A stretch of 63,700 nt of DNA, counting the filler, from Collodictyon triciliatum (taxonomy: Eukaryota), in NCBI GenBank assembly GCA_043381765.1. It is 8 parts of 8 records of this genome, joined end to end, with 100 filler letters (N's around TTAATTAATTAA, not from the genome) between each part and the next. Parts side by side here need not be neighbours in the genome. Positions count along the whole stretch, not along the records: positions 36,908 to 50,710 come from JBHJMP010003980.1; 7 more parts are not named here. One strand, given 5' to 3'. Under the pieces are notes generated by a model. That model was given only the letters and a program-made list of their open reading frames with translations. It was not told the origin of the DNA and made no database searches. Shown here piece after piece: positions 3,201 through 62,200 of the stretch (position 1 is the first letter of the stretch; each line of letters begins with the position of its first letter). Position numbers and translations under genes: made by a program.

Positions 3201-3911
3201 TCGACTTATTCATAATAATAGAGTCTATTTTGAATGAATTCTTTACTTTATCACCTCTTCCAAGGTATGAATTTGTTGCTATTCTTTTAAAATCCTTTTT
3301 TCTTTTTGACATTTTCGTCACTCAGGTTACTGGCATCTTCTTCGAGAATAAGTGCGATTATGCCACCTGGTTCGGAAGCAATCCTGAATTCATCCATGGC
3401 ATTCAAATGCTCCCTATGACTGCCGTGTCGGAGGACATTCGATATGCTTACTTTGTATGGATTGAATAATGTGATTGGCAACACAATGCAACAGATACTG
3501 AGGCATTTATCGGACTTTTGATTAATCAAATTCCTCTTGATATTTAGGTCGCCGAGGAGTGGCCGCTCATTGCTAACCGGGCTCCGATTGCTGCTGGAGG
3601 ATGGTCAAGCGTTCTCTACACGAACTATGCCATGATCAACAAGAATTCGGCCTATAACTCTCTCCTGACTGCCACTCTTGATGACGGACTTACCCGGTAA
3701 ATGTCTTTAGATTTAGTGCAATATCATATTATGTTCGTTTTTTTTTTTTTAAAGAAAAGAGTGAATTGTTCAGAAGAGCAGACAGTTGACTATATTTTAT
3801 CATAGCACATGGGCACTCTATTTCGCAGCCACCCGCCCGAATGCCGAGGAGAGCCAAGGCGCTCCTATTGGCGACTATGACAATATAGCTGCTCTTCCAG
3901 TCCGCATTTAA
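204..3911 (+). CDS. Glycoside hydrolase family 81 endo-1,3(4)-beta-glucanase, multi-exon, 5' partial
   Basis: GT-AG splicing joins GH81 motifs: [45 protein letters not shown] (catalytic Glu region), [28 protein letters not shown]. Stop TAA at 3909-3911. Confidence 0.9.
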
Positions 3912-14913: not shown

Positions 14914-21715
<6,802 letters not shown>

Positions 21716-31902: not shown

Positions 31903-34635
31903 CTACGAACAAGTACAGCAGTTCCTGATATGAAGCAGTTAAAAATGAATACCATTTTGACATCTCACATTATGGTGTGAATATATGCATAAAAATATGG
32001 AACCTAGCATGTCACAAAGATACAGTCACAGTTAGCAAACAAGCAAATAAAAACATAAAATAAATCGACAAATCGAAAACAAACAGTTAAATAAACAATC
32101 ATAAGCTAGTACCAAACTGATAGAAGAGCAAAAGGATAGCAAAAATACAATCGATGTACATACATCGGGGTGCCATAGCCTTCATCGGGGTCATATTTGT
32201 CTGACTCCTTGGCCGGGTACTCCGCCGAGCTGCCTTGAAGGAGCAGGGAAGAGCTATCATGGGATGAAATGTCGCTGTTTTGAGGCGCGATTGTGTGCTT
32301 GGGTGTCTGTGTGTGTTTGTCTTGAATGGGGCTTGACTCCGTTTCATTTAATTGGTGCTTTCTCGGAAATGGACCATTTCGATTTTCTGCAGAGACAGGG
32401 TATCAGTTATTATGACATAGTTTGTAAGGCTTATAAGATGAGAAAGATATGTTAAGAGTACAATATTTGGAATGGCATTTTACCTTCAACTGGATTAATT
32501 AAGGACTCAATATCTCTGTTTCTGGGCGGCTCAGGCTCAGGCTCAGGCTCAGGCTCGACTGGCAAATGTGTTTTAGTCTGAGATGTGGGTTCATAAGCAC
32601 TTTCATGTTCTCTTAAAAGTGTTTTTTGGACATAAATTGGAGCCGAAGAAGGAGGGAAAGCTGGAATAGTGTCTGGGGATGCAGTGATGAATTCCGATGG
32701 GCTGGTAATTCCTGATCGATAATCATCTGGACGAGGTTCTGTATTTTGTGGCCGATTGTTGGTGGGCGGGGCACCGACACTGTCCTCTGGTGTCAGATGA
32801 TAGCCTAACAAGCCATCGTATGTGGTTGATCTCGACCTTGCTTTGTGCATTTCTATGAAGGAAACTGGCTGCTTGGTGAATCTCATTGGTCCATGGTCGC
32901 CAGGTCTCATCAGCCCACCAGCGTTGGGAAGAGCTGGCTCTCTGTTATCAGCGTCAGCGCCCTCAAGAAGATCCTTTGGGGGATTCTAGTTTTGGAGGTT
33001 CAATACGAGAAAAAAAGGGAGAAAAGGGAGAAAAAGGAGAAAAAAAAGGAGAAAAAAGGAGAAAAAAGGAGAAAAAAAGGGAGAAAAAAAGGGAGAGAGA
33101 AAGGGAGAGAGAAAGGGAGAGAGAAAGGGAGAGAGAAAGGGAGAGAGAAAGGGAGAGAGAAAGGGAGAGAGAAAGGGAGAGAGAAAGGGAGAAAAAGGGG
33201 AGAGGAGGCAGAATGGAAAGAGATGAATATATTTACGTGTTGCAAAAAATGTAATTTCGCATAGTATATGCTGATTACAGTCACATTGGCTGTGCGCAGA
33301 TCGTAAAAAGGAAAATAAGGCGAACAGAAGAGGCGATAGTGAAAAAGAACGATTGCGAGATTTGCTTGTGTATAACAGCCCCATACCCGAGCCAGCTTCA
33401 GAATAGTCATGTTTTCATAGCACGCGTTTACGTTTTCGTCAAACTCCTCCTGGGGGCACTCCTCCATGACTAAATCCTATGAGAACGAACAATGAACGCA
33501 CCGATCAAACAGAACAAATACAGACACCGCAACACCTGAACCCAACCCATCCCAACCTCGCAGACATTGACCCACCAAACAGGCAATTAGAGCACCAAAC
33601 AAACAAACAAACAAACAAACAAACAAACAAACAAACAAACAAACAAACAAACAAACAAACAAACAAACAAACAAACAAACAAACAAAATAAAAATAGCAG
33701 TCGAAATAAATCATGAAATATACAAATATAGATATAGAACCCGACACCGACACCGACACCGACACCGACAAATGCCAGGCGACGAAAGGGGAGGCGCTTA
33801 CATCGTAGTAATCGCGGAGGAAGCGGAGCCAGCGGGCCAGGGTCCAGCGGGCTTCAGGGTCGTGGTGGAGGTTGGCGAGGAGGGCGTCCTTGAAGCGGAG
33901 GTCGGAGAGGTCGGCAAGGTGGAAGCGGCGGACATTGACCTTGCGGCGGACAAGGATCTGGTAGGAGATGAAGGCGAGGTTGTAGACGACGCTGCGCTCG
34001 CCGGCGTAGAAGGAGGTGCGCATGAGCTCGGGCGGGTAGAGCAGCATGCCCTTGGAGGCGCGGTTGAGGCGGTCCCACTGCATCTGGACGGAGGCGCGGA
34101 GGGCGTGGAGCTGGTAGTCGACGAGGACGATGGAGCGGCGGCGGGCGTCGTAGATGAGGTTGCGGCAGGAGAGCGGCTCCTCGCAGAAGGCCATGCCGCC
34201 GTCGGGCAGGCGCGGCAGGTGCGTCATCAGGTAGCGCGTGGCGTCGGCCATCTGCAGGGCGATGCGCACGTGCGTGGCCGTGTCCAGCCCCTGGTCCAGC
34301 ACGTCCAGCAGCGGCACGCCCTCTGCAAACGCCCGCACCACGTGCACCTGCTGGCGGTGGCAGAAGAACCCCAGGTACGGCGCAAGGTGCGGGTGCGGGT
34401 TCAGGTGCAGCAGTTTGCGGATGTCGCCCCGCACCCGCTCCACGTCCGCCGCCCCTTCGTACAGCATGTCCGCGCTGAACTGCTTCACCACCAGCTGTGG
34501 CAGCAGCCGCCTCCGCAGGCTCACCTCCAGAAACAGCTCGTACTCGCTGTGCGCAGCCTCGTAGGTCAGCGGCACGAGGCACTCGCGCCCGAAGCCCACT
34601 GTCTCGGTCCTGGCCGCCTCGCTTGGCTCCGTCAT
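31903..34635 (-). CDS. Protein-kinase-like pseudokinase with low-complexity C-terminus and Cys-rich tail
   Basis: Kinase-fold order VVKQF..HPHLAPYLGF..RIALQMADATRYL..LSCRNL..LVDYQ..YPPEL..VYNLAFISYQI. Downstream exons splice in frame to ..YGTPMNCCTCS*. Confidence 0.7.
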
Positions 34636-34660
34636 GGCTTCTTTGGCTGTCCTTGTTTTG

Positions 34661-34701
<41 letters not shown>

Positions 34702-36065
34702 GTTTTGTTTTGTTTTGTTTTGTTTTGTTTTGTTTTGTTTTGTTTTGTTTTGCTTCGCTTTGCTTAGTTTCTTTTTTTTTTTCTTTTGTTGTTGTTGTTG
34801 TTCTCTTTCAACGGGTGCAGTCGATCACAGAGGGGTGGCTGGTTCTGTTCTTCTTCTGCTGTTCTGGTGCCCTCGGACTTTGGACTTTGGACTTCGCCTC
34901 CGTCACAGGCTTCACAAACAATGCGCGAGCGAATTGATCGAGGTTTTGTCAAACGGAGATCGTCGGCCTTCGGCTTGCGCCCGTTGTATGTATGTATGAG
35001 TGTATGTGTAAAGTTAAGCCTGTGGGGTTGGCAGGTGACAGGCTGGCAGACTTTCAGAACCTTGCGGGCTCGCTTGTCCTGTCTGGGCTGGGAGGGAAAT
35101 TATCCTATCGTGGGTAGGGCTCATGTCGACAATCTTGATTTCCTTAAGTGAATATGGGGTGTTGCGTACAAAGTCGTCGACTGCATCGTTATGGAAATCA
35201 CAGATAAGTAAGTTGTTTTTGCTTTTTTTTGCTTTTTTTTTTTGTTTTTCTTTGGGAATTTAATTATCCCACCAAATTGTATCTAGTATCTCAATTTTTA
35301 CTTTTTCCTCTCCCTACCTACCGTTTCACAATCTGAAGAATCGTGCTCGGTAGCTTTCTATACGACGTGGCTCCAGTTGATATTTTGGCGGCTTGTTACA
35401 AAGAGCCAGAATTAATTTTGTACGATTTATGACATAATTTTATTACATGTTTATTAAGTTGAGTATTCTTATTGAGATAAATGAGCAAATAATTACTTGG
35501 AGAAGTATATTCCGCAAATGAATTATTTCATACAGAAATATGTTCAAAGAATCACCAAATAAATTTCCCCTGTTGACAAGTATGGAAAATTTCTGCGATA
35601 TAAAAATTCTGTCATAAGTGGAAAATATCTTGTGCTCTAGGATGATCGAATCTTCGGTGGGCTTCGAGGAAGGCTGTTGTGCCATCGTGCATCAGGCCAG
35701 GGAATCAGATACCTTCCGTCGGAGATCGATGGGTGCGCGACTGCTTTCTACAAACTCTAGCAGCCTCACCTGTACCTGGTCTTAATTATGACGCAAAAAA
35801 GAANNNNNNNNNNNNNNNNNNNNNNNNNNNNNNNNNNNNNNNNNNNNNNNNNNNNNNNNNNNNNNNNNNNNNNNNNNNNNNNNNNNNNNNNNNNNNNNNN
35901 NNNNNNNNNNNNNAAAACAAAACGGGGAGAATAGGAGGGGAAAAGGCTGCGCATGAAACCAATTCATCATGACAGGCAATTTGGTTGGTGCGTGAAAGTG
36001 AATCGCACTCGTGCTGTGACGAGAAGGACTGTGCATAAGAAGGCGGTGGTGTGATTAAATGACCA

Positions 36066-36783: not shown

Positions 36784-37063
36784 GTTTTGTTTTGTTTTGT
36801 TTTGTTTNNNNNNNNNNNNNNNNNNNNNNNNNNNNNNNNNNNNNNNNNNNNTTAATTAATTAANNNNNNNNNNNNNNNNNNNNNNNNNNNNNNNNNNNNN
36901 NNNNNNNATGTATGTATGTATGTATGTATGTATGTATGTATGTATGTATGTATGTATGTATGTATGTATGTATGTATGTATGTATGTATGTATGTATGTA
37001 TGCACATTTACAAAGCAAATTGACTTGTTTGATTACTAAGCACCATTCAATATTGCGCCATAG

Positions 37064-43996
<6,933 letters not shown>

Positions 43997-44466
43997 AGGC
44001 AAAGCCTTCAGCTCAGAGCCGCACAACAGAATAGGAATATTCTATTCTATACTATAAATTTGCCGGCTTTGTTTGTTTGTTTGTTCGATCTATTCTATAC
44101 CTCGCAATGTGTATTAATGAGATAATCACACACAGAGAGATAGACTTGAGAGGAGCAAAAAAAAAAAAAAAAAAAANNNNNNNNNNNNNNNNNNNNNNNN
44201 NNNNNNNNNNNNNNNNNNNNNNNNNNNNNNNNNNNNNNNNNNNNNNNNNNNNNNNNNNNNNNNNNNNNNNNNNNNNNNNNNNNNNNNNNNNNNNNNNNNN
44301 NNNNNNNNNNNNNNNNNNNNNNNNNNNNNNNNNNNNNNNNNNNNNNNNNNNNNNNNNNNNNNNNNNNNNNNNNNNNNNNNNNNNNNNNNNNNNNNNNNNN
44401 NNNNNNNNNNNNNNNNNNNNNNNNNNNNNNNNNNNNNNNNNNNNNNNNNNNNNNNNNNNNNNNNNA

Positions 44467-44561
<95 letters not shown>

Positions 44562-44938
44562 GACACACTCTTCAGAAAATAGTATTATTGCACTGGGCTC
44601 TTTTCTTCTCTCAACCCACCACATTCTGAATCTGAAGCCGGAAAAGAAAGTAAGCAGGTAATCGGAAAGAGGGATCCTGAGAAGGACAAGACCGCCTACC
44701 AGGAGACCAACGCCATGGAACGCCTACCATTCGCACGCAAATTGAGAGGCCGACGCAGCCGACCCAGAGGGCCAAAAGGTCACTTGACCACATCCCTTTC
44801 AACACAGGTTATGCGCAGAGACACCGACGATCAGGACGCCAGAGAACACCAACCCGTGAGTACAACAAGCGACGATAAGACGGAACGAGCATTCGAAAAG
44901 AATAATAAAGGAAAAAGATGGAGCGATTTCTTTGAAAC

Positions 44939-45017
<79 letters not shown>

Positions 45018-45879
45018 GGCGGATAGAATAAAGACAGATCAAGCTCTAGCCATTAACCCACGGACAGCAAGATAAGTATGAATATAGTGCTCAGTATTAG
45101 TTTCTCTGATTCATTTCTATACTTTCTTTATCTCTTTTTCATTTTTCTTTTTCTCTTTTTTCTTTCCATTTTCTCTTATGTCTCATTCAGCCTGTGACTA
45201 GATAAGCTTTATTACAAAGGTTGTGACGAACTTGTTTTTATCCCTTTCAAAGCACACCACTTTTTATACAACGAAAGTGTACCCATATATAGCAATTTAT
45301 TGCACAGACAACCATCGAATTAAATCTGGATTGAGAAAAGCAGGAGCTTTGGTGAATCCAAGGAAAGAACCTGAATAATGTAATAGTATAATTAGTATAT
45401 ATGATAAGGTATAAGAATACTTAATAATCTCATTCTATTCCTAAAATAAATTTATATTTATTTCTCATTTATGTAATATCATTGAAATTCAAAAATTACA
45501 AACAAGCCTTTGCCTTGGCCTAGACAGAACCCAGCCTACAAACCTGCCACCAAACATATATTTCAAAGTATACTTTCCACACTTGCGGCGGTAATCATAT
45601 TGCTTGGGGCCGATATGTTGACTTTCAGTCTCAATGGCAAAACAGCCGTCCTTTCGAACTCGCCGAATTGGCTCTCAGCGTTTTGTTTCAAATCACTTCT
45701 AAAAAATTTGGAGTGTCTGATTGCCACAATGTGCACATTTTGAGAGTCTCGGTAGATGCTTAGTTTTACATAATTGATTTTATGCAGTTTTTTTTTTTAA
45801 TTGACAGATTGACTCAAGTTTTATTAAAATTGAAAACTCGATAGTTTTCTAAAGGAAAAAGTAAAACAAAGGCTTTCAC

Positions 45880-47920
45880 ATGAAGAAAAGAAAACGTCTT
45901 GAGTCTGAGAATCCAAAGTCTGTAAACCCGGACAATAGAAATGTGAAAATATCTCTAAAGTCGATTGTAAAGAATCCGGATGATTATTACAAAATCAACG
46001 ATACGATTTCATTGTGTCATAACTTGGTTACGACACTTGTCTGTTTGCAAGATGTTACATATTGAAATCACAACACCTCCCAACAATCGATGAAATTTTT
46101 TTTGTGCGCTTTAAAGACAGTCGGAGTAGTTTCACAAGATAGACCCACAAGTTTTTTTAAAAAAAATACCAGATTTTTTTTATTTTTTATTATTCTTCCT
46201 TTCAACTTTTGTGCAGGACCGAGGGGGGGGGGGGGGGGGGGGGGTTGGCTTTGGTTCGCTAGCCATCGTTTACATGAACGCTACTTGTTGGCCGGGTGAA
46301 AAAAAAAATACCAGAGATGAATAAAGACATGACGACTTTTTATCTCTACGATTTCCGATTCCTTTTGTCCCGAGAAGAACGCTTTCGATTGATTGGACTG
46401 TCTCACGTATTACCGTACTTGGCGAAGCAAATGTTAACAGCTTATCATAATGACATTAAGGAGCATTTTGTAAAGAGGTTACTGCGCTTTATAAATCAAA
46501 CAGTTCCTAAAGATGGGAATATCACGGAAGCTATTAAAAAAGGCAGAGTTAGGAAAGTTAAAAGAAGTCATCTTCAAGAATCTCGGAATACCGGAGCAAT
46601 ATAAAGAATGGGCTAGAATGCATTTGAATCGTATCATTCCCAGCGATATTGTAAAAGGTATCGAATATGACGTCAAACTCAATCCAAATAAGTACATTCC
46701 ATGTCTGATTTACATGAATCGCATTTTTGAGGACATTGGAACCAAACTTTTCAACCAATCTCTATAAGAACTAACAGTATACCATGTCATATTAGTCTAG
46801 ATACTGCATGTTTGATATATCTATTAGTATCAAATGGAAAAACAGTATTAAAGAAGAATATATCAGGATGCGAAGATACCCCATGGTTTGACTTCTATGA
46901 AATCAAATAGAGGGTCTTTCATCAAAGAGACTACAATTTTATATACATGATACAAACAGACGGCTTGGCGGTGTCATTTTTGTTCGGAAAGAAAGGTATT
47001 TCAAATCCAAAATTCAAAATACCAAGAAAATCAAAAAAAAAAAACTAAGAATATGTTTATATATATATGAACTTTCCGAAGAGCAGTTATCTCTATTAGC
47101 GACAAAAAATATAGTTTGGGTGGACGCAGGTAAGTTTAATTTGGTTTACATGGTGAATGAGACAGGCAAGAAATTATGTTACACGGCACACCAATGAAGA
47201 TATGATAGCAAATCTCTTAAAAATCACAAAATACTCTTGCGCAAGAATAAAGAAAAGTACAATGATTCAGGGATATGCATGGCAACAGGTTCACAAAGTG
47301 CTGTTTCTTTTGGTCACAGGACTTTTGAAGAGAATCAGCAGTTTGAGACATCAAGAGTATCTTTAATCGATTTAGAGATAGAACTGAGTAAACATAATTC
47401 ATGTACCGTCGATTATGAAAAATTCGAAAATATATATCTATGAAATTAAGATACCAGATAGAATTATCCGGATTTTATGAACAAGTAACTTTTCGAAAGA
47501 TGAGACGGAGATAATATGTTAATACAAAAAGAAGTGAGCAGATGTTTATGGACCGATTCGAAAAGACATTTGGCAAGGATGTTGTACTTGCGTATGAAGA
47601 CTGGAGCAGAAAATGCCAGCTGAAGCATTTTATGGCAACAATCGAAAGCGGATTACGAAAAATACTATCCAAACGTTCTGAAACAGTTAATGTATAGATG
47701 AATTTAGAACCTCCAAGATGTGTTGCAATTGCGAAAAAGAACTGGAATATATAACACTGAAAAGAAATATGAAAAAAAGGTGTATAGTTGTCTCATATGT
47801 AAAGAATGCAATCGGTCAGAAAGCAAACTGCATTCTTGACAAGGGACTTTATCAGCGCTAATAATATACTCGACAAAGTTCTTTCAATCCTTCAAAATAT
47901 GCATACGACTCTCCTCAAAA
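45880..47920 (+). mobile_element. Degenerate Fanzor1 (TnpB-like RNA-guided endonuclease) pseudogene
   Basis: Intronless frameshifted peptide: KISLKSIVK, LPYLAKQMLTAYHNDIKEHFVKRL, YDVKLNPNKYIPCLIYMN, IPCHISLDT, IQTDGLAVS, RuvC-I IVWVDAGK (D 47123), AYEDWS, RuvC-II DEFRTSKMCCNC (E 47700), CLICKEC, RuvC-III TRDFISANNI (D 47845). Confidence 0.85.
46174..46300 (-). mobile_element. 5'-truncated retroposed insert with 15-bp target-site duplication
   Basis: AAAAAAAATACCAGA flanks both sides (46159-46173, 46301-46315). A/TAA-rich tail on the minus strand. Homologous copy at 51196-51294. Confidence 0.75.
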
Positions 47921-47925
47921 AACTC

Positions 47926-48045
47926 AGGCTGTTGGGTCTTTCCTGGCAGCCTTCACCACTACACAATCTTTGTGAAAAAAGTGGTGAGACCTTGAATACT
48001 AGCGCACCAGGTTTGCTAATTGAAAGATGGTATACCCCTTCCAGT
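47926..48045 (+). ncRNA. Putative Fanzor omegaRNA scaffold
   Basis: Adjacent hairpins directly 3' of RuvC-III: 47926-36/47942-52 (8 Watson-Crick + 3 G-U pairs) and 47953-60/47980-87 (perfect 8 bp) with inner 47962-66/47970-74. Boundaries are uncertain. Confidence 0.55.
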
Positions 48046-48527
48046 AAAACGACATGCCTGATAACAATATATTAAAGATAGTTCAATATCAAAAACTACG
48101 CTCACGGTGAGCTTGAGGCTGAACACAAAGTTCTGTTGCAGTCATTCAGAACCGCTGTCGACTGCAACACAATATCTCACCAACCGCAGTCTGGCACAAC
48201 TCTGTGCGCCGAATACTCTGGTGGGCGTGGTTGTCCCTGTTGCTTTGTCCACGTCTGGTGCCCTCCTTTATTCCCTGGCAATAGACATGTAACAGGCCAA
48301 GGCAATAAAAACCGTGAAGACCCTGGTGGCCGAACAAATGCAAAACAGGTACGAAAGGTGAGGGAAAACTTCCTCCTCCTTTTGTTGATGCGGGGGCGAC
48401 ATAGGTGGAAACGCTATTGTCTTGAACACAGAGAAGCAGACGAATGAGGGTCTGCAATGAGGAAAGACTCAGGGTGGTGATAGTCGGGCGGAGAATTCTG
48501 CGTGGGCCAGAAGAATGTTTATTGCAT

Positions 48528-49371
48528 TTAGTTCTGGTTCTTGACCTTCTTCTCGTTGGAAAGCTCGAAGTGCTTGCAGCGCTTCAGGGCCAGTTGCTGC
48601 TTGTACTTGCACTTGGTGCACTCCAGACGGAGCACGATCTTCTTGGTGGTCTTGGCCTGTTTGTCAAAGGGACGTTAGCTTCAGACCGTTTGTGCAGCTT
48701 GGGGTTTGGGTTCCGTGCGAGTGACACAAGCGGCGACAGGGAGACCTGTTTGGACGGTAGGTTGTGAGGAGTTTTTACGAACCTTCTTGTGGAAGATGGG
48801 CTTGGTCTGTCCTCCGAAACCACTCTGCTTTCGGTCGTAACGTCTCTTACCTATGAAGTGGGGTATATCATGGGTACGAGAACTAGAGAGAGAACTAGAG
48901 AGAGAGAGAGAACACAGGTTCATGAGTTTCGGAGGAGTGGAAACTAAGCTGTAACCTTGGGCGAAGAGGCTGGCCTTGCCGACCTTGTACTGCGACACTT
49001 TGTGAGGAGTGTGCTTACGGCATTGCTTGGACTTGCAAAAAGTGTTGCGGGTCTTTGGGATTTGGACCTGTTTGTGGTCAGTTTTTAGTAAAGTTTTTTT
49101 TTGTTAGTGATGAATCAGGGGCTGGATCAAGCCGGATCAAGCTGGATCGCAGGGATCAGAACTTTAGAGGTCGACAGCCTCAGACTAATAAGAATGGGAC
49201 AGTTTCGACAGACAACGCAAGAAGTTATATTCGTGTGTCTGGCAAGGAGCAATTATTTTCTGAACGACAGTGCGCTACGGGATTGGGGCTGTGGATACAT
49301 CTCATGGAGTGATTGGGTAATGAGCCAAAGAGGTATGAAAAATCATTGGGATTAGGGCAGGAACTTACCAT
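48528..49371 (-). CDS. RPL36A: 60S ribosomal protein eL42 (L36a/L44), 3 introns
   Basis: [78 protein letters not shown]. Confidence 0.96.
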
Positions 49372-49759
49372 GATGCTGGTTACTGGGTGGATAGCGGATT
49401 CCTATCGGCGCCACGGACACGATACTAGTAAAGAGCTGCGTGTTTTCACAATCGGCACTGGGAAGACTTTGTTTTTAACTGAGAAATTTTCCAGCTTTGG
49501 TTGGCACTGTTCGACAAGCGACTTTGCGCATACCCCAAGCAAGACTGCTTAATTGATGAATTACAAAATTAATATTATATTTCATATGTACAATTTGGAC
49601 ATAAACAGATTATCAAAAGCGAATGTATATTGATCATCATTCTTCGCATAATATATTCCAGAATTATCATGAAAGGAGAAACCGCTGATTATCCGTAATT
49701 TTATGGTAGTATTATTACGGTATTATTTGCCAACTTTTGCCCGCTAAGTTTCCTGTGCG

Positions 49760-50710
49760 ATGGCGGCGGACAAGGATAGCAGGGTAGGATTCACAGAGGC
49801 AGCCATTGGATAAGTGCGGGCCTTACCACTTCTGAAGGATTCTGTAGCCACTAGGGCTTATCAGTCGCAGCCAGTTCTTCTGGTTCCAACGCTAGTGCGG
49901 AAAACCCCTGAGTTGCACGTAAGTCTAGGAAGACCCGTGCAAGGAAGCCGCCTGCAAGTCTGTCTGAGCGGACAGTATTTTTGCACGGGATCGAGCATGT
50001 CGTTTACAACAAGAACAAGGCCCGCAGGCTCACAGATGCACTCACCTTCTTCTTGAAAGCGAATAAACTTTGCGAAGAGTCCATCCAATTGCGCTTACCA
50101 TACAGCGAAGGTCTTTACCTGATTGCCTTCCGCACTGCAGAAAACGCCCGAAAGCTTCTAAAGTTGAAGCAGGTAAGTTTGGGCGATATTACGATCAGCT
50201 TCAGTAGAAGTAAACCAACAGAGACCTTGGTGATGCTCTACCAACTACCGCTGGACGTGTGGCCGCAACTTATTCGTGAGGAGCTGAAGCCGTTCAGACC
50301 GACCCACGTAGATATCAAAAAGGACAAAGGCTTCTTCACAAACTCAATTGTGGTGAAGCTTCTTTGTCACAAGAACCAGCTCCCTGCAAAGTTTACGGTC
50401 ATGGGAAAAAAGTGTCCAAAGCGCATCCCCAAAGAGCGTCCGCCAGCCGCAAACAACGAACGACAAGTAAAAGCCCCGCAAAAGAATACAACCGCCAAGC
50501 AGACAAGCAGCAACGGGGCCAAGGAAACCAAGGCCAGGCAACAATAGAGCTCGCAAGACTCACAGCAGATACGCGCATACAACGACAGCGACGATGACAT
50601 GGAAGGAAATCTCGGTTCCTCTTCAGAATCCTCGCACTCGAGCCCTCCACCGCCAATACTGGACAAGCCCGCACATCGCAAGACCCAAGAGCAGCGCATC
50701 TCCAAACCCC
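49760..50710 (+). mobile_element. Degenerate non-LTR retrotransposon (L1/Tx1-like) ORF1, truncated by the contig end
   Basis: Intronless. Two RRM-like units (RTVFLHGI..YLIAFRTAENARKLL; VMLYQLPLDV..IREELKPF..LPAKFTVMG). In-frame stops at 49909 and 50545. No reverse transcriptase visible. Confidence 0.55.
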
Positions 50711-51195: not shown

Positions 51196-51490
51196 TTTTT
51201 ATTATTATTGTACCTTCAATTTTGTTCAAGATGGCGGGGATGTTGGCTTTAGTTCGCTAGCCAACGTTTACATTTACGCTACTTGGTGGCCGGGCGGCAA
51301 AGTAGTCGGCAATCAGAATTGTATCCTGCATTTTGGCCTGTAGCCTGGGTCTTGTCATTACATAAGAGAGGCAAGGCGAGGTTGAATATCTTTCTCGGCT
51401 TCTTTCCATATGTCTCTTCTCACGGGGTCTGAGTAGGAGAGAACGTGCAGGTGGCGAAAGAAGCTGTTGAGGATAGATATTTTTATGGCG
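51196..51490 (-). mobile_element. Second, longer copy of the retroelement 3' end
   Basis: 51196-51294 aligns by eye with 46174-46297 and shares the tail-side boundary. The extension to about 51490 (ORF-end-like ..KDIQPRLASLM*) is inferred. Confidence 0.55.
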
Positions 51491-51512: not shown

Positions 51513-53303
51513 TCAAGGTCTTGGCCAATCTTCTGTATTTAATCTGAATGGAAAAGCTGATAGGTATAAGGATGTCATTGACATTAACGCCGATTGGAGC
51601 AGGAGCACTGCTTTGAGATTATAATTCCATTTTCTTACGATGGGAATCTCAACAGCATATAAGTAATACTCAAAAGTAAGGCATACTACCTGAGTGAATA
51701 TTTCTATTGGTAATTGTATGGCGAGACTCAAGAAATATTGCTGAATCTTTGGTGATGTTTGGAATGTCACATAGTCTTGAATGGGGCTTGAGAGATAAAA
51801 TACAAGAGGGATGAAAATAATTATTTGAGGCTCTGCTACCAGTCTGTTATAAATGGTATTTTTCCTTAGGGGAATCATAAATTGAAGAACCTTTTCATTA
51901 TTCGTCATAAAGAGGCGAGTGATTTTGGGCAGTAAGAAATCATTTGAATAAAGTGCTGTAATTTTCATTTCTGTTGATGAATTTGAGCACTCCAAATCTT
52001 GTTTTTTATCTTCTAATTTTGCTTCCTGTGACCCTGGTGGGGGTTTTTTAGCATTTAAATTCAAGACTCTGTTTTTGGAAAACATTTTGCTGACATGCTC
52101 CTTCAATTTTTTTCCAAGTTTGTTCATATAAATCGTTCTGGGGATGTATGTAATCCAAAAGAATATTTCAAAAATGCTGGATGAGACTGCCATCAGCCCA
52201 GTATCGTAAAGATTAGGGGCATCTGCAATTATAAAGCGAAGAATAGACTGAGATATGAATCCCAGTAAATAGCTGAATAAAAACCTGTACTTTTGAAACT
52301 CGATCGATTTATATATTAGCATATTATTCTGAATTGCCTCAGCGATATTGAATGCAAACGGAAGTATAATGGCTCTCCCAATAACGCGTATATATATGTC
52401 AGAGTCCATGAGGAAAGGGATTAAGTATGTAGTGGAGATATAATATATGATAAAGAAAGGAACAAAAGCTATAAGGATGGATAATGGCGTACCATCCGTG
52501 GAAAGCACGTAATATCTATGCTTCTTTGAGCCAACATATGAGCTGTCTCTACCCTCGGTTACTTCAGATGGATTCGCCCTCAAAGAAAGTAACAAAATAG
52601 ATGCATATGTGAAGAAAATTAAGTAAAACGATACAGTTATCCACGGTATTTCACATATTGCCCTGAAAATGTAGGCTATTATGTGGACTGCACAACACGG
52701 AAGCATCGTTTTGACTACTTTTGATTTCAGTCGGTTCAAACCGAATATGTAGGCACAGAGCAAAAAGACAGAAGTATATAGGGAGCAAATAAAAAATGAG
52801 TCCACAATAAGAAAGTGATATATCATACTCTCATGGTCGATAGTAAAGAACTGTGTGGAGCCAAATATTATGAAGATTAGTAGAAAGGGAATAGCTCCAA
52901 GAACCAAAGAATGCCAGAGTAACCATGGAATGATTTGAAACGAATAGTGGGCGGCCTGCATAAGTGTTATTATTTCAGTAGGTTTCATGTCGCATGGTGG
53001 TCTTCTGGGAACTTGTTGGTTATCAGTGTCGTATTTCTCTTGGTTTATGTCTTCGCATCCTCGATTTTTTTCCTCTGCTGATATGCAGCTGTGATATTCT
53101 CCACTGTAGGGACTATTTGATCCGCGTGGTATTGAGCCATTATTGTCTGAGCATTCTTTCTGGTCAGCCACAGATTGATAACACGAATTGTTGTGCCTGT
53201 CACCTTCAAAAGGATGGTACTCGATCGGTATACCCAGGATATCAGGCTCCGTTGATACTGCGTTGAAATCGGTTTCTTTGCTTGAGCGCCTATGTCTATT
53301 CAT
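51513..53303 (-). CDS. Uncharacterised 596-aa multi-pass membrane protein, intronless coding region
   Basis: Long uninterrupted ORF with a hydrophilic N-terminus and roughly ten hydrophobic segments. Confidence 0.8.
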   Translation of the reverse strand: MNRHRRSSKETDFNAVSTEPDILGIPIEYHPFEGDRHNNSCYQSVADQKECSDNNGSIPRGSNSPYSGEYHSCISAEEKNRGCEDINQEKYDTDNQQVPRRPPCDMKPTEIITLMQAAHYSFQIIPWLLWHSLVLGAIPFLLIFIIFGSTQFFTIDHESMIYHFLIVDSFFICSLYTSVFLLCAYIFGLNRLKSKVVKTMLPCCAVHIIAYIFRAICEIPWITVSFYLIFFTYASILLLSLRANPSEVTEGRDSSYVGSKKHRYYVLSTDGTPLSILIAFVPFFIIYYISTTYLIPFLMDSDIYIRVIGRAIILPFAFNIAEAIQNNMLIYKSIEFQKYRFLFSYLLGFISQSILRFIIADAPNLYDTGLMAVSSSIFEIFFWITYIPRTIYMNKLGKKLKEHVSKMFSKNRVLNLNAKKPPPGSQEAKLEDKKQDLECSNSSTEMKITALYSNDFLLPKITRLFMTNNEKVLQFMIPLRKNTIYNRLVAEPQIIIFIPLVFYLSSPIQDYVTFQTSPKIQQYFLSLAIQLPIEIFTQVVCLTFEYYLYAVEIPIVRKWNYNLKAVLLLQSALMSMTSLYLSAFPFRLNTEDWPRP

Positions 53304-54019
53304 TAATCGTGTTGGTAGCGCGTTCAGTCGCCACTGGACGAATACCTGAGTTAGGAGGGTAAGTATCTAAATAATGCAGGAGATTGCAAGTTGGGGAGCA
53401 CCAGCAAAGAAAATACCACAAAAGGTACGCCCCACTTAAGAATAAATAAATTCGATCATGTGCACACTTGGTTCTCGTCTACGGCAGTGACCAGTTTTGG
53501 TCGCTATTAGTGTGTAAGGTTGAACTCCGATAGTTCTTGCTTGGTGAATGGGCGAAGGAAAAAAAAAAGGGTTAAGTTCCACGCACCGCACTTAGATTCG
53601 TGATAACGGCTTTTCAGACCCAAATATTGGCAGATCGAATTCGGCGGAAAAAAAAGTGACATTTGGTGCCGAATTGCTCGATACATTTCACATGATGAGG
53701 AAGCGCACACGCCTGTTTTTACATTCCCAAAAATAATTCCTTCTATTGGCTTTGTCGACAAGTTCAGGTGACGAAGGGTGCCAGCGATTACATCCGTTGT
53801 TCTCAATTTGCATAGGGTCAAGGGGATGTGACTGTATCAAACGAAATGGATATGCCATCCCTTCAGGGCATTGACAGCACTGCGTTCGATGTGGTAGCTG
53901 CAAATTGCGCCACCCATTTTGTCGTCATACATAAAAACAAACGCGAGCTGCTGAGTACTTGGCGAAGACTAAAAAAAAGGGAAGATATCAATAAGAAAAA
54001 AAAAAGGCTGAGCAAAAGA

Positions 54020-57265: not shown

Positions 57266-59265
57266 CTATTTATTTAAAATTCAAGAATTTGCGTTAGACT
57301 TTTTGTTAAAATTGTTTTCTGTATTGTATTTTTATTGGTTTTTTATTGGTTTTTTATTGGTTTTTTATTGGTTTTTTATTGGTTTNNNNNNNNNNNNNNN
57401 NNNNNNNNNNNNNNNNNNNNNNNNNNNNNNNNNNNNNNNNNNNNNNNNNNNNNNNNNNNNNNNNNNNNNNNNNNNNNNNNNNNNNNNNNNNNNNNNNNNN
57501 NNNNNNNNNNNNNNNNNNNNNNNNNNNNNNNNNNNNNNNNNNNNNNNNNNNNNNNNNNNNNNNNNNNNNNNNNNNNNNNNNNNNNNNNNNNNNNNNNNNN
57601 NNNNNNNNNNNNNNNNNNNNNNNNNNNNNNNNNNNNNNNNNNNNNNNNNNNNNNNNNNNNNNNNNNNNNNNNNNNNNNNNNNNNNNNNNNNNNNNNNNNN
57701 NNNNNNNNNNNNNNNNNNNNNNNNNNNNNNNNNNNNNNNNNNNNNNNNTTTTTTTTTCCATAAAGTCAATGAATGGCTCATGCTTCTCCAAACCAACATT
57801 CTTCAATCATACACCATATTTGATGACGATACGCTGAATTACATCAAGTAGACATTTTATCTTAATTGCTTTCTTGCTATCTTTATATGTTTACATAATG
57901 ATGGCAGGTAGCAATCAGGAAACCTGAGGCAAATGAATGCTTGATTTCCAAATAGATTCACTGTTATTTACCCATATATCCTGTCGATATGTCGCCTCAC
58001 TCGCCCAAAATTCAATCGTCTCCACTATTTCTCAACCGCCTTTTCTCTTCAATCTTCAGGCACAAACCATCTNNNNNNNNNNNNNNNNNNNNNNNNNNNN
58101 NNNNNNNNNNNNNNNNTTAATTAATTAANNNNNNNNNNNNNNNNNNNNNNNNNNNNNNNNNNNNNNNNNNNNCGAATTTAAATAAGTGGGGAGGGGAAAA
58201 AAAAGGAGGAGGAAAAAAAAAAAAAAAACGGTTTTTTTTTTTTTTTTTTTTTTTACTGCTATAACATGCATACCTAGACTTTCTTACCTACTACCTTACC
58301 TGCGATTGTAACCCGACCCCTACATAACACTACCACCGACAAAATATTTCATTTGTCATTAGTGCCAACAAAAAACAAAAACAAGAACTGCCTAATGAAT
58401 TGCCTAGTATACCCCCTTGATACCCATCATCTTTGGGATTGGCAGTATGAACGATCGATTTGCTCCACTTTACACTCGACATAATACCTTTTCTCTCTCT
58501 TTTTTTTTCTCTCTCTCTCTCTCTGTCCTTTTTTCTTCTTCCGATTAAATTCTATATTTCACTCTTTTAGCCTTCTTTTTCTTTGATATCATAGGCTTGT
58601 TCATGAATGTGCATCAAGCTCGGTTCTTTCTTTCTCCTATGAAGACTCTACCCCCAAATATTATGCCTCACATCTTCTCCTCACCCAGACTCCTAAACTT
58701 TCCAGAGTGCCCTGTTTCAAATGACGTGCGTACTACATCAACCTCCCCAAAAACCCTCGGCCGGTTTGAACGACGCTGTTTGACCGACTAATAAAGACCG
58801 ACCAACACGATTATTGTTCTGTTCGTTCTCGCAAACACCAACACAAGCACCAAAGCCCGTCTTTTCATCGTCACTCTAGCATCTCCCTTTTTGCAGGTAC
58901 CATCAGATAGCAACCCGTATACCATTAAAGCTTACACCATGCTCATATTCTGTCGCTTTTAAGATGACGATGAAAATGAAAAATACTATGATATGTGTGT
59001 GTGGGTATTAAAAAAAAATTAAAAAAAAATTAAAAAAAAATTAAAAATTAAAAAGAAAAGAAAAAAGAAAAGAAAAAAGAAAAGAAAAAAGAAAAGAAAA
59101 AAGAAAAGAAAAAAGAAAAGAAAAAAGAAAAGAAAAAAGAAAAGAAAAAAGAAAAGAAATTAAAACACAATGAATATATACATATACTTTTATGCAAAAG
59201 AAAGAAAAAGGATATTGAAGAGAGACTTCAAAAACCCAACGTCATTAACCTCACAGATCGCTTCC

Positions 59266-62200
59266 ATGGAGTTTGGCGAGTCACCTCAGCGCCCCCTGCG
59301 ACGCGTCCTTCTTCTCTCCGAAGAGCCGATCGAAGTTGACTCGCTGATACAAACACAAAACACAACCGATCTTCCCAATCCACTCGGAAACATAGGAACT
59401 CGTCCAACGCCGATCGACGAACTCGGCCGACCCACAATAAGCGCGGGCGCTTCTCAGTCTTCTCCACATATCCCGTTCCACAGCACACGCTACGCCTCCT
59501 TGGTCCAATCGGCCCAAAGCTTGGCACATTCGAACCAGACTGCCGAACCAGAACCAGCCACATACAAAGACTCGGTTCTTGGCTCAGCATACCTGAGAGA
59601 CTCTGACCAGGAGGCAGCACATATGTTATCAGTGAAACCAAAGACAGAGGGGCACTTTGAAAACGGCTTTGCTATGCAACCTGGCGATACATCGCGGACT
59701 GAGTTGGAGACTAATGTCGGGCAGTCTCGTTCATCTGGGCTTTATCCGATTCATGCATCAGACATAAGCGAGGTTGAGGAGGATGGAGAAGATTTTCCTG
59801 TCGTGAAAGTGCTACCGAACCAGGCATCCATTGCAACATCACAACCGTATGTTTGATATTCAATTAAATATACTAACTCTTAGAAAAATAAATAATTAAG
59901 GGGTCATTCGCCAGATTCGCATTAATTTTTGCCTTTTTTGCCTTTTTTTCTTTTGCCATTTTTCAGTGTCGAAAGACACATAATCTAATGTTACGTATTA
60001 GATGCATGCATTCCTTTGACAATATTCTAAACACGATATATATATGCATATAGTACATCAACAGGATCAAATTTATCGGATGTTCTACAACAGATTGCAG
60101 ATCGAAGGAAAAAGATTGAGCAAAGACTTAGCAGCTATCCACGACCTAGCGCACTGCATGGAAGGCACCCAAATATATCCGATACACTGACATCTTCAAT
60201 CGGGACGCCGTTATCAAGCGGGGTACAAACGGGTCCGAGTATTCGGTCACAAGGAACGTCATCTTTAGACCAGTACAGTCAGGATGTGAGCTCTGCACAG
60301 AGTTCAGTTGCACAAGCAGCCTTGCGTGTGAGGGCTCTACGGGAAGAAAGAGAAAAGATAGCCCATTCTGTAAATCGAATTCCTCCCAGAACAGAAGAGC
60401 TTTCCTCCATCAGACAAAGGCTCGATAGGTTTGGTTTGAATCATACCTTGATGATCATTTTGTTAGCATAATTATCAAGATGACCTAAAAAAACACACAG
60501 TTTAGATTGCGTACAACAAAAGTACAAAAACAATCGAAACTATAAAATGTTATAGTACTCCATATATTCCAATAAATCGTATCTATTTATATTATTTTTA
60601 CTTATCCTCCTCTCCCTCCTCTCCCTCCCCTCCCCTCCTCCTCTCTTACTCATTTTCTTTCTTCCTCTAATTTCAGAAAGGGGGGGTTCTTTCACAAACC
60701 GTGAGCATCAATCCAATTATGCTGGATTAGTTTTTAGTTTTTAATTTTATCTTTTTTTTTTTTTTCGAAAGCAACAAGAAGGTGATAACCGAGATTAGAA
60801 AAAATATGGCCATCGGGCGGAGTGATGATTCCGTCAAATTAAAATCAGAATCAGAATTATCCGAGTTTATTCCACCACATACCAACCACACTCGCTTTGT
60901 TCAAAACTACGAAAATAGTGGACCATCCAACAAGAAAAGTGATGGATCAATTATGGAATCTGATTCAGAGTCCAGTTCTAATACATCCGAATTTTATGTT
61001 CAAGTTTCAAAAACAAGTGCTACGCAAGAGAAAATTTTTGGAGTCATCAACAGCCCACCAGTTGACTTTACTGAAGGAGATTCAGCAAATTTTGATATAG
61101 CCTTCCCTTCTAAACGTATCTCATCATCCAGTCCCGAGCCAATATCAAAAATTAGCCCGCAATCTACTTTACACACACCACAGTCAAATTCAAATATTCT
61201 CGAAGAGGCATTAACAATTTCCTCTTCCCATACAATCCAGTCCCCTAATTTATTTGGGGTTACTTTAGTAAATCACTCTATGAAATCTCTTGCAAAAAAA
61301 CATTCTGGCGGAGCTCACAAACCTCCCCAATCATCTAGTGATGAAGACTCTGTGCTAAGCTCTCCCTCATCATTCTCGACAGTACATCCAACTGAAACAC
61401 CAAAGAGAATATTTGAAAATACCCCGTCAGAAGTTTCTGTAACTTCATTTTTCAACTTACATTCCACCGGGGACCGGAAAAGCATCATGAGTCGAGAGTT
61501 CCTCTCAGAAAACCCGCAGACCAAATTCTCTCCTGTAATTTCAAACCATGACCGCTCTATAGGGCCACGTCATGTACTAAAGATGACTTCGGATGTGCAT
61601 CATCGTCTATCGGCCGACTCATTTCCTTCACCCAATTCGGAACACGAAATAAAGACCGCTTCTATTCATGACTATGAACAACAAAGTGAATCAGAAACGG
61701 AGTTTGAAGTTAAACACGAGGAAAAAATTGTTAAGAAGAAACAAGGTGAACTAGAAAAGACAACACACCAAAGTCTTTTACCGGCTCCTCAGAGTAATGC
61801 AGCTGTATCCACCAAAAAAACCCTACCTAAAGTTGAAGAAAAATCAACTACTTTGGGAAGTCGTATCAAAAACGAAAAGACTCGATCATCAGATGCTCAA
61901 TTTTCGTCAAAATTGACCACTCTACGTGTTTGTACAAAAGGTGACAGATTCTCATCAGTATACATCGATATTCAAATATATTTATAATTGATACATTAAT
62001 TTAGATTCACTTTTGAAATCATGTTTGCTAAAACAAATTCATCTTCTTATCTAGATACAGTGCGTCAAAATTTATCCGGAATCATACAAGAAAGATCATT
62101 ATTTAGAAAAAGCTTTTATCATACACCATTTATAGATTATAAAAAATTTATGAATGTTGCGCTCCTTACAAAAGAAAAGAACAGTAATGTGCAAAAGGTA

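Follow-up and report, generated by a model that had tools for sequence, protein, structure and literature searches.

We analysed a 63,700-nucleotide stretch of DNA from Collodictyon triciliatum (assembly GCA_043381765.1; hereafter the window), which joins eight parts of eight records and of which positions 36,908 to 50,710 come from JBHJMP010003980.1. Positions 45246-47996 very probably represent a decayed copy, ~2.75 kb long, of a non-autonomous DNA transposon whose sole gene was a Fanzor1, a TnpB-type RNA-guided RuvC endonuclease of eukaryotes or viruses. A reading of 45880 to ~47975 on the plus strand revealed short open pieces in three frames, and these were recognized as the relic of the Fanzor1 gene through a bridge of intact metagenomic relatives.

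Homology of the Coding Relic to Intact Proteins

An exhaustive phmmer search over 1.84 billion representatives was performed with P0002, a 92-residue read-through of 47419-47694 in which one stop was written as X. The search returned 486 proteins at an expect value (E) of 1e-3 or lower, 29 of them at E ≤ 1e-10, and many were 620-650 aa long with the query placed around residues 440-530. P0006 (634 aa), the best of the full-length relatives, resembled the window pieces from end to end. A tblastn comparison of P0006 with the window gave three linked segments (summed E 4.6e-63), and a frameshift-aware alignment placed its residues 103-625 on 46317-47997 with 223 of 518 positions identical (43.1%) and a score of 912, compared with 52 for the reversed protein. 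The N-terminal residues 2-82 were aligned at 38% identity. The relic was also identical to other relatives at 171 of 344 (P0007), 112 of 209 (P0005), and 59 of 84 (P0004) positions. A further read-through with all stops written as X (P0003) brought no gain over P0002.

The 2,525 pieces of the six-frame translation of the window were then all compared with a profile of 43 full-length relatives (A1). Eleven plus-strand pieces of the locus were matched, strictly in the order of the profile (E 2e-21 to 0.017), and the best match beyond the locus in the whole window reached E 0.23. Two of the eleven (47419-47511 and 47515-47694) made up the query that had retrieved the relatives, so that their match is built in, and nine are independent. 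No second copy was found in the window, and weak matches near 51.5-52.0 kb were inspected as a possible second copy and dismissed. The features of the coding relic are as follows, with residues numbered in P0006 and in SpuFz1, a Fanzor1 of known structure.

45880..46106, plus strand: N-terminal relic with start codon (P0006 residues 2-82 on 45886-46106, 28/74 identical; frameshift near 46032)
46317..47868, plus strand: main coding relic with WED/REC, RuvC-I, RuvC-II, zinc finger, and RuvC-III, in three frames (P0006 alignment and A1 profile matches)
47123..47125, plus strand: RuvC-I Asp codon GAC in V-D-A-G-K-F-N (P0006 D372, SpuFz1 D383)
47596..47607, plus strand: E-D-W-S, with Glu codon GAA (47596-47598) at the Gly of G-D-W-S
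47700..47732, plus strand: alternative RuvC-II Glu codon GAA (47700-47702) in I-D-E-F-R-T-S-K-M-C-C-N-C, through the first CxxC (47721-47732) (P0006 E530, SpuFz1 E541)
47789..47800, plus strand: second CxxC of the C4 zinc finger, frame 2 (reading and alignments; piece 47708-47836, profile E 0.017)
47842..47847, plus strand: RuvC-III Arg-Asp, AGG-GAC in T-R-D-F-I-S-A-N-N-I (P0006 R580-D581)
47869..47975, plus strand: probable C-terminal tail after a further frameshift (frames and family consensus), ending with TGA 47973 within the right inverted repeat

The N-terminal relic was matched by the profile as piece 45865-46062 (E 1.5e-5), and its ATG at 45880 opens a basic M-K-K-R-K-R that may resemble a nuclear localization signal. 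At the other end, N-P-S-K-Y (~47880) probably resembles the R-P-x-x-F of the family; the alignment program did not recover this tail. A preliminary description of the locus, made from the DNA alone, had proposed that the fragments stitch into one intronless protein. The in-order alignment to intact proteins of ~630 aa across frameshifts and stops bears this out, the gene is intronless, and all of its landmarks (47123, 47700, 47845, both CxxC, YD..P..Y, and xDWS) were recovered exactly. Its extent of 45880..47920 was right at the start codon and too short at the end, the coding relic probably reaching ~47975, inside the right inverted repeat.

Assignment to the Fanzor1 Lineage

Among the chains in the PDB, P0006 matched only Fanzor1 proteins at E ≤ 1, namely SpuFz1 (E 9.2e-37, residues 14-607), PpFz1 of Parasitella (7.2e-34), and GtFz1 (7e-16). 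The A1 profile matched the same three chains at E 1.6e-83 to 5.8e-108 (SpuFz1 ~1e-103). Its next match was LaTranC (E 2.7e-4, C-terminal zinc-ribbon part only), and no Fanzor2 (ApmFz2) or ISDra2-type TnpB chain was matched by the profile at E ≤ 10. The Cas12f1-like TNB family of Pfam (PF07282) was found at E ≤ 0.01 in 8 of the 12 relatives scanned, and its Pfam cut-off was reached in 2. An AlphaFold2 model of P0006 was built on A1 (predicted local distance difference test 87.4; predicted template modelling score 0.85). In a Foldseek search this model matched SpuFz first (template modelling [TM] score 0.79/0.82, E 1e-31), followed by PpFz and GtFz, whereas ApmFz2, TnpB, and Cas12f gave TM scores of only 0.21-0.28. 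As judged from these comparisons, the window gene is of the Fanzor1 lineage by descent, the link running via its metagenomic relatives. The fear that the reconstructed protein would lack any TnpB or Fanzor match was not borne out, and the Fanzor1 identity put forward in the preliminary description, rather than Fanzor2 or TnpB, agrees with both the profile and the fold.

The active site points the same way. According to the alignment, residues D383, E541, and D606, which are catalytic in SpuFz1 (PMC11423790), correspond to D372, E530, and D581 of P0006 and to the window codons at 47123, 47700, and 47845. The Glu column holds E in 136 of the 138 relatives that cover it, and the RuvC-III column D in 114 of 118. 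The Fanzor motif D-X(125,275)-[TS][TS]-X-X-[C4 zinc finger]-X(5,50)-RD (Bao and Jurka 2013, PMC3627910) can be traced in the window through three frameshifts, from D at 47123 to T-S at 47709-47714 (~195 residues on), the C4 finger, and R-D ~15 residues past the finger. In Fanzors the RuvC-II Glu has moved so that it precedes the first CxxC by six residues (Yoon 2023, PMC10711439; Jiang 2023), as seen in E-F-R-T-S-K-M-C-C-N-C at 47700-47732. Yoon gives this placement as a rule for Fanzors in general, and it does not mark Fanzor1 alone, although the preliminary description linked it to Fanzor1; YD....P..Y and xDWS, which that description had also cited, are genuine family-wide features in A1 and are visible in PpFz1 and SpuFz1. 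The D-P-G at RuvC-I is described as "near exclusively" Fanzor (Yoon 2023). The P occurs in all 104 relatives covering the column and is replaced by A in the window, and we read this D-A-G as decay of this copy, not as evidence against Fanzor descent. What had been called an intact catalytic triad is therefore intact in its three codons and altered in its surroundings, where the P of D-P-G and the G of G-D-W-S have changed.

SpuFz1 (PDB 8GKH, 9CEU-9CEZ), PpFz1, and GtFz1 have the same full-length architecture as the intact relative P0006, and G-D-W-S, T-D-G, the C4 finger, and R-D are common to SpuFz1 and the P0006 family, but the identity of P0006 with SpuFz in the structural alignment is only ~22%. 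Unlike SpuFz1, the window copy is broken, reads D-A-G in place of D-P-G and E-D-W-S in place of G-D-W-S, and carries an insert of 33 residues after RuvC-I (47255-47355). Since this insert is missing from P0006 and present in P0005, it is a feature of the sub-lineage and not damage.

Could the locus be a Fanzor2, or a prokaryotic TnpB of the IS200/IS605 or IS607 type, perhaps brought in by contamination or by recent transfer from bacteria? Fanzor2 (ApmFz2, MmeFz2) and these TnpBs resemble the window lineage in RuvC D-E-D chemistry, the zinc ribbon (TNB), and presumably omega-RNA guidance, Fanzor2 also in the alternative Glu position; the RuvC/zinc-ribbon core is shared, and a weak PF07282 match exists. 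However, by sequence only Fanzor1 chains are matched, ApmFz2 and TnpB chains being absent from the profile matches at E ≤ 10, and the fold scores of ApmFz2 and TnpB are 0.21-0.24, against 0.79 for SpuFz. Moreover, the protein is much larger, its ~630 residues and long N-terminal half fitting residues 14-607 of SpuFz1; no IS607 TnpA or other TnpA-like open reading frame (ORF) lies nearby; and intron-bearing eukaryotic genes adjoin the locus. Such an origin is vanishingly improbable, and we keep to Fanzor1.

A Multi-Copy Element and Its Candidate Ends

Fifteen sequencing runs share words with the window, each at a small share (0.05-0.10), and none of them is listed as RNA. Logan contigs of four runs, two from coded organisms of one study (X1 and X7, possibly RNA) and two labelled as freshwater metagenomes (X2 and X3), were mapped on 45000-48400 at ≥80% likeness. 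X1 gave 531 contigs, X7 557, X3 264, and X2 42, with likeness ranging from below 90% to above 99%, and the pieces among the contigs listed span 45236 to 47963. Hundreds of contigs at 80-99% likeness in four runs therefore identify a multi-copy, non-autonomous element. The stops at 47195 and 47512 are replaced by a sense codon in nearly all related contigs covering them, and at 46030, 46748, 47696, and 47911 some contigs have an indel of a size that offsets the frameshift of the window.

The preliminary description had suggested that this host may carry intact relatives. Related copies are numerous, but none seen in the host is uninterrupted: the listed contigs are ≤450 nt, so that no complete open copy is demonstrated, and the six library matches ≥50% identical to P0002 are all fragments (59-209 aa, on contigs of ~500-770 nt), among which at least P0004 is frameshifted relative to the family. 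The boundaries of the unit are proposed as follows.

45246..45281, no strand: candidate left terminal inverted repeat, pairing with 47960-47996
45282..45879, plus strand: noncoding 5′ part of the repeat unit (related contigs, e.g., 45236-45436, 45371-45706, 45510-45852, and 45565-45969)
47960..47996, no strand: candidate right terminal inverted repeat, pairing with 45246-45281

This pair is the best local inverted match between 45100-45520 and 47850-48100 (29 of 37 columns, score 32), and none of 300 shuffles reached this score (19.7 ± 2.3). The longest related contigs among those listed stop at 47954 and 47963, near the right arm; 48078-48400 is covered by no contig of the four runs, and no weight was placed on this in setting the right end. 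The candidate element thus delimited would measure ~2.75 kb (45246-47996), or ~2.6 kb without a later insertion, with ends of 36 nt. Only 634 bp lie between the left end and the ATG, which leaves no room for a transposase, and no transposase relic was detected in 42500-45900 or in the whole window: the DDE_3 transposases of two intact relatives' elements (L003 and L006, see below) scored 38 in frameshift-aware alignment, against 41 for the reversed proteins, and the best tblastn match had E 0.82. Directly to the left of the element, (AAGAAAGG)n-like and (AAT)n simple repeats and a CT-rich tract occupy 44466-45030 and 45125-45167.

Lesions of the Window Copy

The window copy is dead and non-functional, as the preliminary description had recognized. 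Alignments to P0006, P0007, P0005, P0004, P0012, and P0008 revealed at least 8 frameshifts, and with them come 3-4 in-frame stops and an insertion.

Near 46032, 46555, and 46749; one or two in 46987-47066; 47425-47431, 47691-47697, 47771-47783, and 47809-47854, plus strand: frameshifts (alignments to the six relatives)
46908 (TAG), 47195 (TGA), and 47512 (TAA), plus strand: in-frame stops (alignments to relatives)
46151..46326, no strand: secondary insertion of ~175 bp containing runs of T/A and one of G21 (contigs join across it; the ORF is interrupted)

The fourth stop, at 47046, appears against P0006 and not against P0007. At the insertion site, 60 nt in P0006 (residues 83-102) correspond to 210 nt in the window. 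In contigs of X1, X3, and X7, no more than 3-32 other letters separate 46145-46154 from 46300-46334, and the ~175 bp are thus a later insertion in the window copy; part of it (46235-46296) is 87% like 51233-51294.

If the breaks were sequencing or assembly errors, or were overcome by a variant genetic code or programmed recoding, the gene might still be functional. Several frameshift sites do lie within homopolymer runs, and none of the three catalytic codons or the zinc-finger cysteines has been lost. Nevertheless, TAG, TAA, and TGA all occur in frame, so that no single code reassignment rescues the ORF, and at least 4 frameshifts fall outside homopolymers. The ORF-breaking insertion is missing from other copies, an invariant P and G have been replaced, and the closest library relatives (P0004, P0005, and P0012) themselves look like frameshifted fragments. 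We therefore consider a functional gene exceedingly improbable and regard the locus as a dead copy.

Intact Relatives, Their 3′ RNA, and Giant Viruses

A metagenome search with P0006 retrieved 10 loci, the six long ones with a coding density of 85-94%; a search for related loci in metagenome and viral contigs with P0002 retrieved none. Pfam was applied to 30 ORFs neighbouring the relatives, and an NCLDV (giant-virus) major capsid protein was identified in L008, mRNA capping enzyme and TBP in L006, MutS and a DEAD helicase in L009, and HSP70, DnaJ, and ribonucleotide reductase in L003. By their gene content, the contigs bearing the nearest full-length relatives are giant-virus-like genomes. In L001, L002, L003, L005, and L006, Fanzor1 sits in a 3.3-kb unit with inverted ends of 32-34 bp (e.g., 8631-11951 in L006) and in differing surroundings, beside a divergent DDE_3/HTH_28 transposase of the IS630/Tc1/mariner type; L004 retains the Fanzor part and the right end only. 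Two side observations were made on these relatives. L005 also encodes a second, distinct Cas12f1-like TNB protein of 573 aa (2117-3838, plus strand; PF07282 E 2.2e-9) ~4 kb from its Fanzor1 element, and P0007 (JGI/IMG), a Fanzor1 fragment of 378 aa, is named "6-pyruvoyl-tetrahydropterin synthase" at its source, an evident misannotation.

The 3.3-kb elements are ~73% identical overall and ~90% identical in their last 190-300 nt. RNAalifold predicted 86 pairs in this 3′ part, with 97% of cells paired. Eleven pairs were doubly changed, against 2.9 ± 1.4 in shuffled alignments (0 of 500 as many) and 0-2 when the partners were slid; this covariation comes from five sequences only, and the structure itself was deduced from that one alignment. 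The 3′ RNA was also modelled by covariance (R1); the model matched L008, which is 51% identical (E 3.7e-10), and found no match in L009. Given that omega-RNA overlaps the 3′ gene end and the transposon end (Jiang 2023, PMC10530073), the structure of the relatives is what an omega-RNA would be predicted to look like, by analogy; an omega-RNA of the window lineage is hypothetical. In the window, 47780-47996 folds into two strong hairpins (-55.5 kcal/mol, z -3.27; a fold as good came from 1 of 200 shuffles), and Rfam gave 0 matches on 44500-49500.

By analogy with SpuFz1 and other described Fanzors, the Fanzor1 of a working element would bind a structured omega-RNA made from its own 3′ gene end and the adjoining transposon end, and the guide part of this RNA would direct the cutting of matching DNA beside a short motif. 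The active site would consist of the RuvC-I D, the alternative E that precedes the zinc finger by six residues, and the RuvC-III D. We infer that the element was moved in trans by a transposase of the Tc1/mariner type or another. The window copy itself is incapable of all this: it has its lesions, two near-invariant residues are altered, and neither a transposase nor an omega-RNA scaffold could be detected.

The make-up of the relatives' elements has precedents. Bao and Jurka (2013) described virus-borne elements of this kind (PGv-1 and HMa-1): large algal viruses carry Fanzor1 within Tc1/mariner elements, and HMa-1, on a Hydra contig, was judged to be probably virus-derived. An endogenous giant virus of Chlamydomonas carries three Tc1/mariner-Fanzor1 families (A-C), together with Fanzor-only and degraded derivatives, and a Fanzor fragment lies in the host chromosome (bioRxiv 2024.09.03.611062). 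In a catalogue of 3,655 Fanzors, a single genome has as many as 122 copies, and Fanzor1c is associated with Mariner/Tc1 (Jiang 2023). Compared by description, L001-L006 share with PGv-1, HMa-1, and the Chlamydomonas families the inverted ends, the DDE_3 transposase, the Fanzor1, and the giant-virus-like contigs, and the window shows the same pattern as the Fanzor-only and degraded derivatives and the host fragment of Chlamydomonas. Unlike these virus-borne elements, the window has neither a transposase relic nor a TA duplication, its candidate ends differ from the terminal inverted repeats of the relatives, and its element is highly multi-copy, whereas the virus-borne elements of 2013 were reported as single-copy. 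The suggestion of an undescribed family in the preliminary description is not supported as it stands. By profile, E values of 1e-83 to 1e-108 join the relatives to SpuFz1, PpFz1, and GtFz1, the element type was described in 2013 and 2024, and the family does not lie outside the described diversity of Fanzor1.

These precedents raise the question of whether the relic, rather than being a host transposon copy, belongs to an endogenous viral element, a stretch of giant-virus DNA integrated into the genome, the Fanzor having arrived with viral DNA. The nearest full-length relatives do reside in contigs of ~85-94% coding density with giant-virus-like genes, HMa-1 of Hydra was judged virus-derived, and the endogenous giant virus of Chlamydomonas carries such elements. 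However, a ribosomal protein L44 gene with introns is found on the opposite strand, ~0.5-1 kb downstream, and no viral hallmark was found in the 16 longest window ORFs scanned (of 78 with ≥110 aa). The unit is only ~2.75 kb long with inverted ends, and it is represented by hundreds of diverged contigs, as amplification of a transposon would give. We consider an integrated segment very unlikely. An ultimately viral origin of the family by horizontal transfer is compatible with the decayed transposon copy that we propose.

Several observations weigh against the decayed Fanzor1 transposon and must be set beside the evidence above. Three word-based protein searches (with P0001, with piece 47691-47858, and with P0002) found no homologue. 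When 10 window pieces were submitted to Pfam, one subthreshold match was obtained (PF07282, E 0.036), and the PDB search with window pieces gave PpFz1 residues 1089-1156 at E 0.04 and 1163-1184 at E 0.23, which is not significant. PpFz1 was the sole PDB match of one piece and the best of its neighbour, and neighbouring pieces matched neighbouring parts of PpFz1; such adjacency offers a lead, not proof. The PDB phmmer searches with P0001 and with piece 46495-46764 gave chance matches only. As no single window piece is significant alone, the assignment to Fanzor1 rests on the bridge via the metagenomic relatives. With regard to the ends, which are candidates set from this one copy, the low-complexity DNA blurs the left boundary. 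The preliminary description had called for the element ends and a target-site duplication to be defined; candidate inverted ends were located at 45246 and 47996, but inspection by eye for a TA, 3-, 4-, or 8-bp duplication found none, the flanks reading ...CCCT and TACT... with no TA in common. Furthermore, R1 failed to match the window, both with default filters and when these were switched off (best 1.6 bits, E 2.4), and the frameshifts in A-runs (near 46536, 47040, 47425, and 47775) may partly be assembly errors.

Glutamate at the G-D-W-S Glycine

The Gly of G-D-W-S corresponds by alignment to SpuFz1 G505 and to G500 of Bao and Jurka (2013), who called it "extremely conserved". It is G in 147 of 154 relatives. 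Two of the exceptions are the closest relatives, with E in P0004 and D in P0005, and the five others are short fragments. In the model of P0006 this Gly closes strand 492-497, one helix-strand unit before the strand of the alternative Glu (524-529), and from the topology of RuvC the position is possibly the site of the canonical RuvC-II Glu of TnpB and Cas12. The canonical Glu is reported to be replaced by Pro or Gly in Fanzors (Jiang 2023), and restoring it in ApmFz2 (G416E with E467P) yields collateral cleavage (bioRxiv 2026.06.23.733943).

The simplest reading of the Glu at 47596 is neutral decay common to related dead copies. It is unlikely, though worth stating, that the founder of the high-copy family was a natural "double-Glu" Fanzor1, in which an acidic residue took the place of the Gly and the alternative Glu was kept. 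If true, this would be a natural rewiring of the active site akin to the engineered ApmFz2 with collateral cleavage. On the same unlikely reading, the founder may also have come to the host by way of a giant virus and multiplied there to hundreds of copies.

Surroundings of the Locus

Exons of ribosomal protein L44e/L36a (PF00935, E 2.5e-13) lie at 48470-49103 on the minus strand, just 3′ of the relic, and a glutaminase exon (PF04960, E 1.1e-20) further upstream at 16874-17347 on the plus strand. An uninterrupted ORF of 617 aa with many hydrophobic stretches occupies 51513-53366 (minus strand), which is unusual among intron-bearing genes; it has no Pfam match at E ≤ 1, looks like a membrane protein, and is not a transposase by the tests applied. 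Two other ORFs, of 418 aa (60731-61987, plus strand) and 439 aa (33505-34824, minus strand), belong to no significant Pfam family; the latter has a weak kinase match (E 0.0024), and its opposite strand is open for 398 aa. Paired runs of 44 N, 12 bases apart, recur every ~7.38 kb (7287, 14673, 22057, 29437, 36808, 50711, and 58073), and three longer N runs occupy 35804-35913, 44177-44465, and 57386-57748. All of these look withheld or masked rather than biological.

Implications

The dead copy itself has no function, and its only unusual feature is the Glu at a conserved Gly. With it, the catalogue of Fanzor1 gains one host lineage and one high-copy sub-lineage with a 33-residue insert. The intact relatives are candidate compact editors: P0006/P0154 offer a confident model, and L001-L006 offer defined ends and a covarying 3′ RNA. 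Moreover, a repeat of a host genome is tied to Tc1/mariner-Fanzor1 elements of giant-virus-like genomes from freshwater metagenomes. This link supports the view that giant viruses ferry RNA-guided nucleases between eukaryotes.

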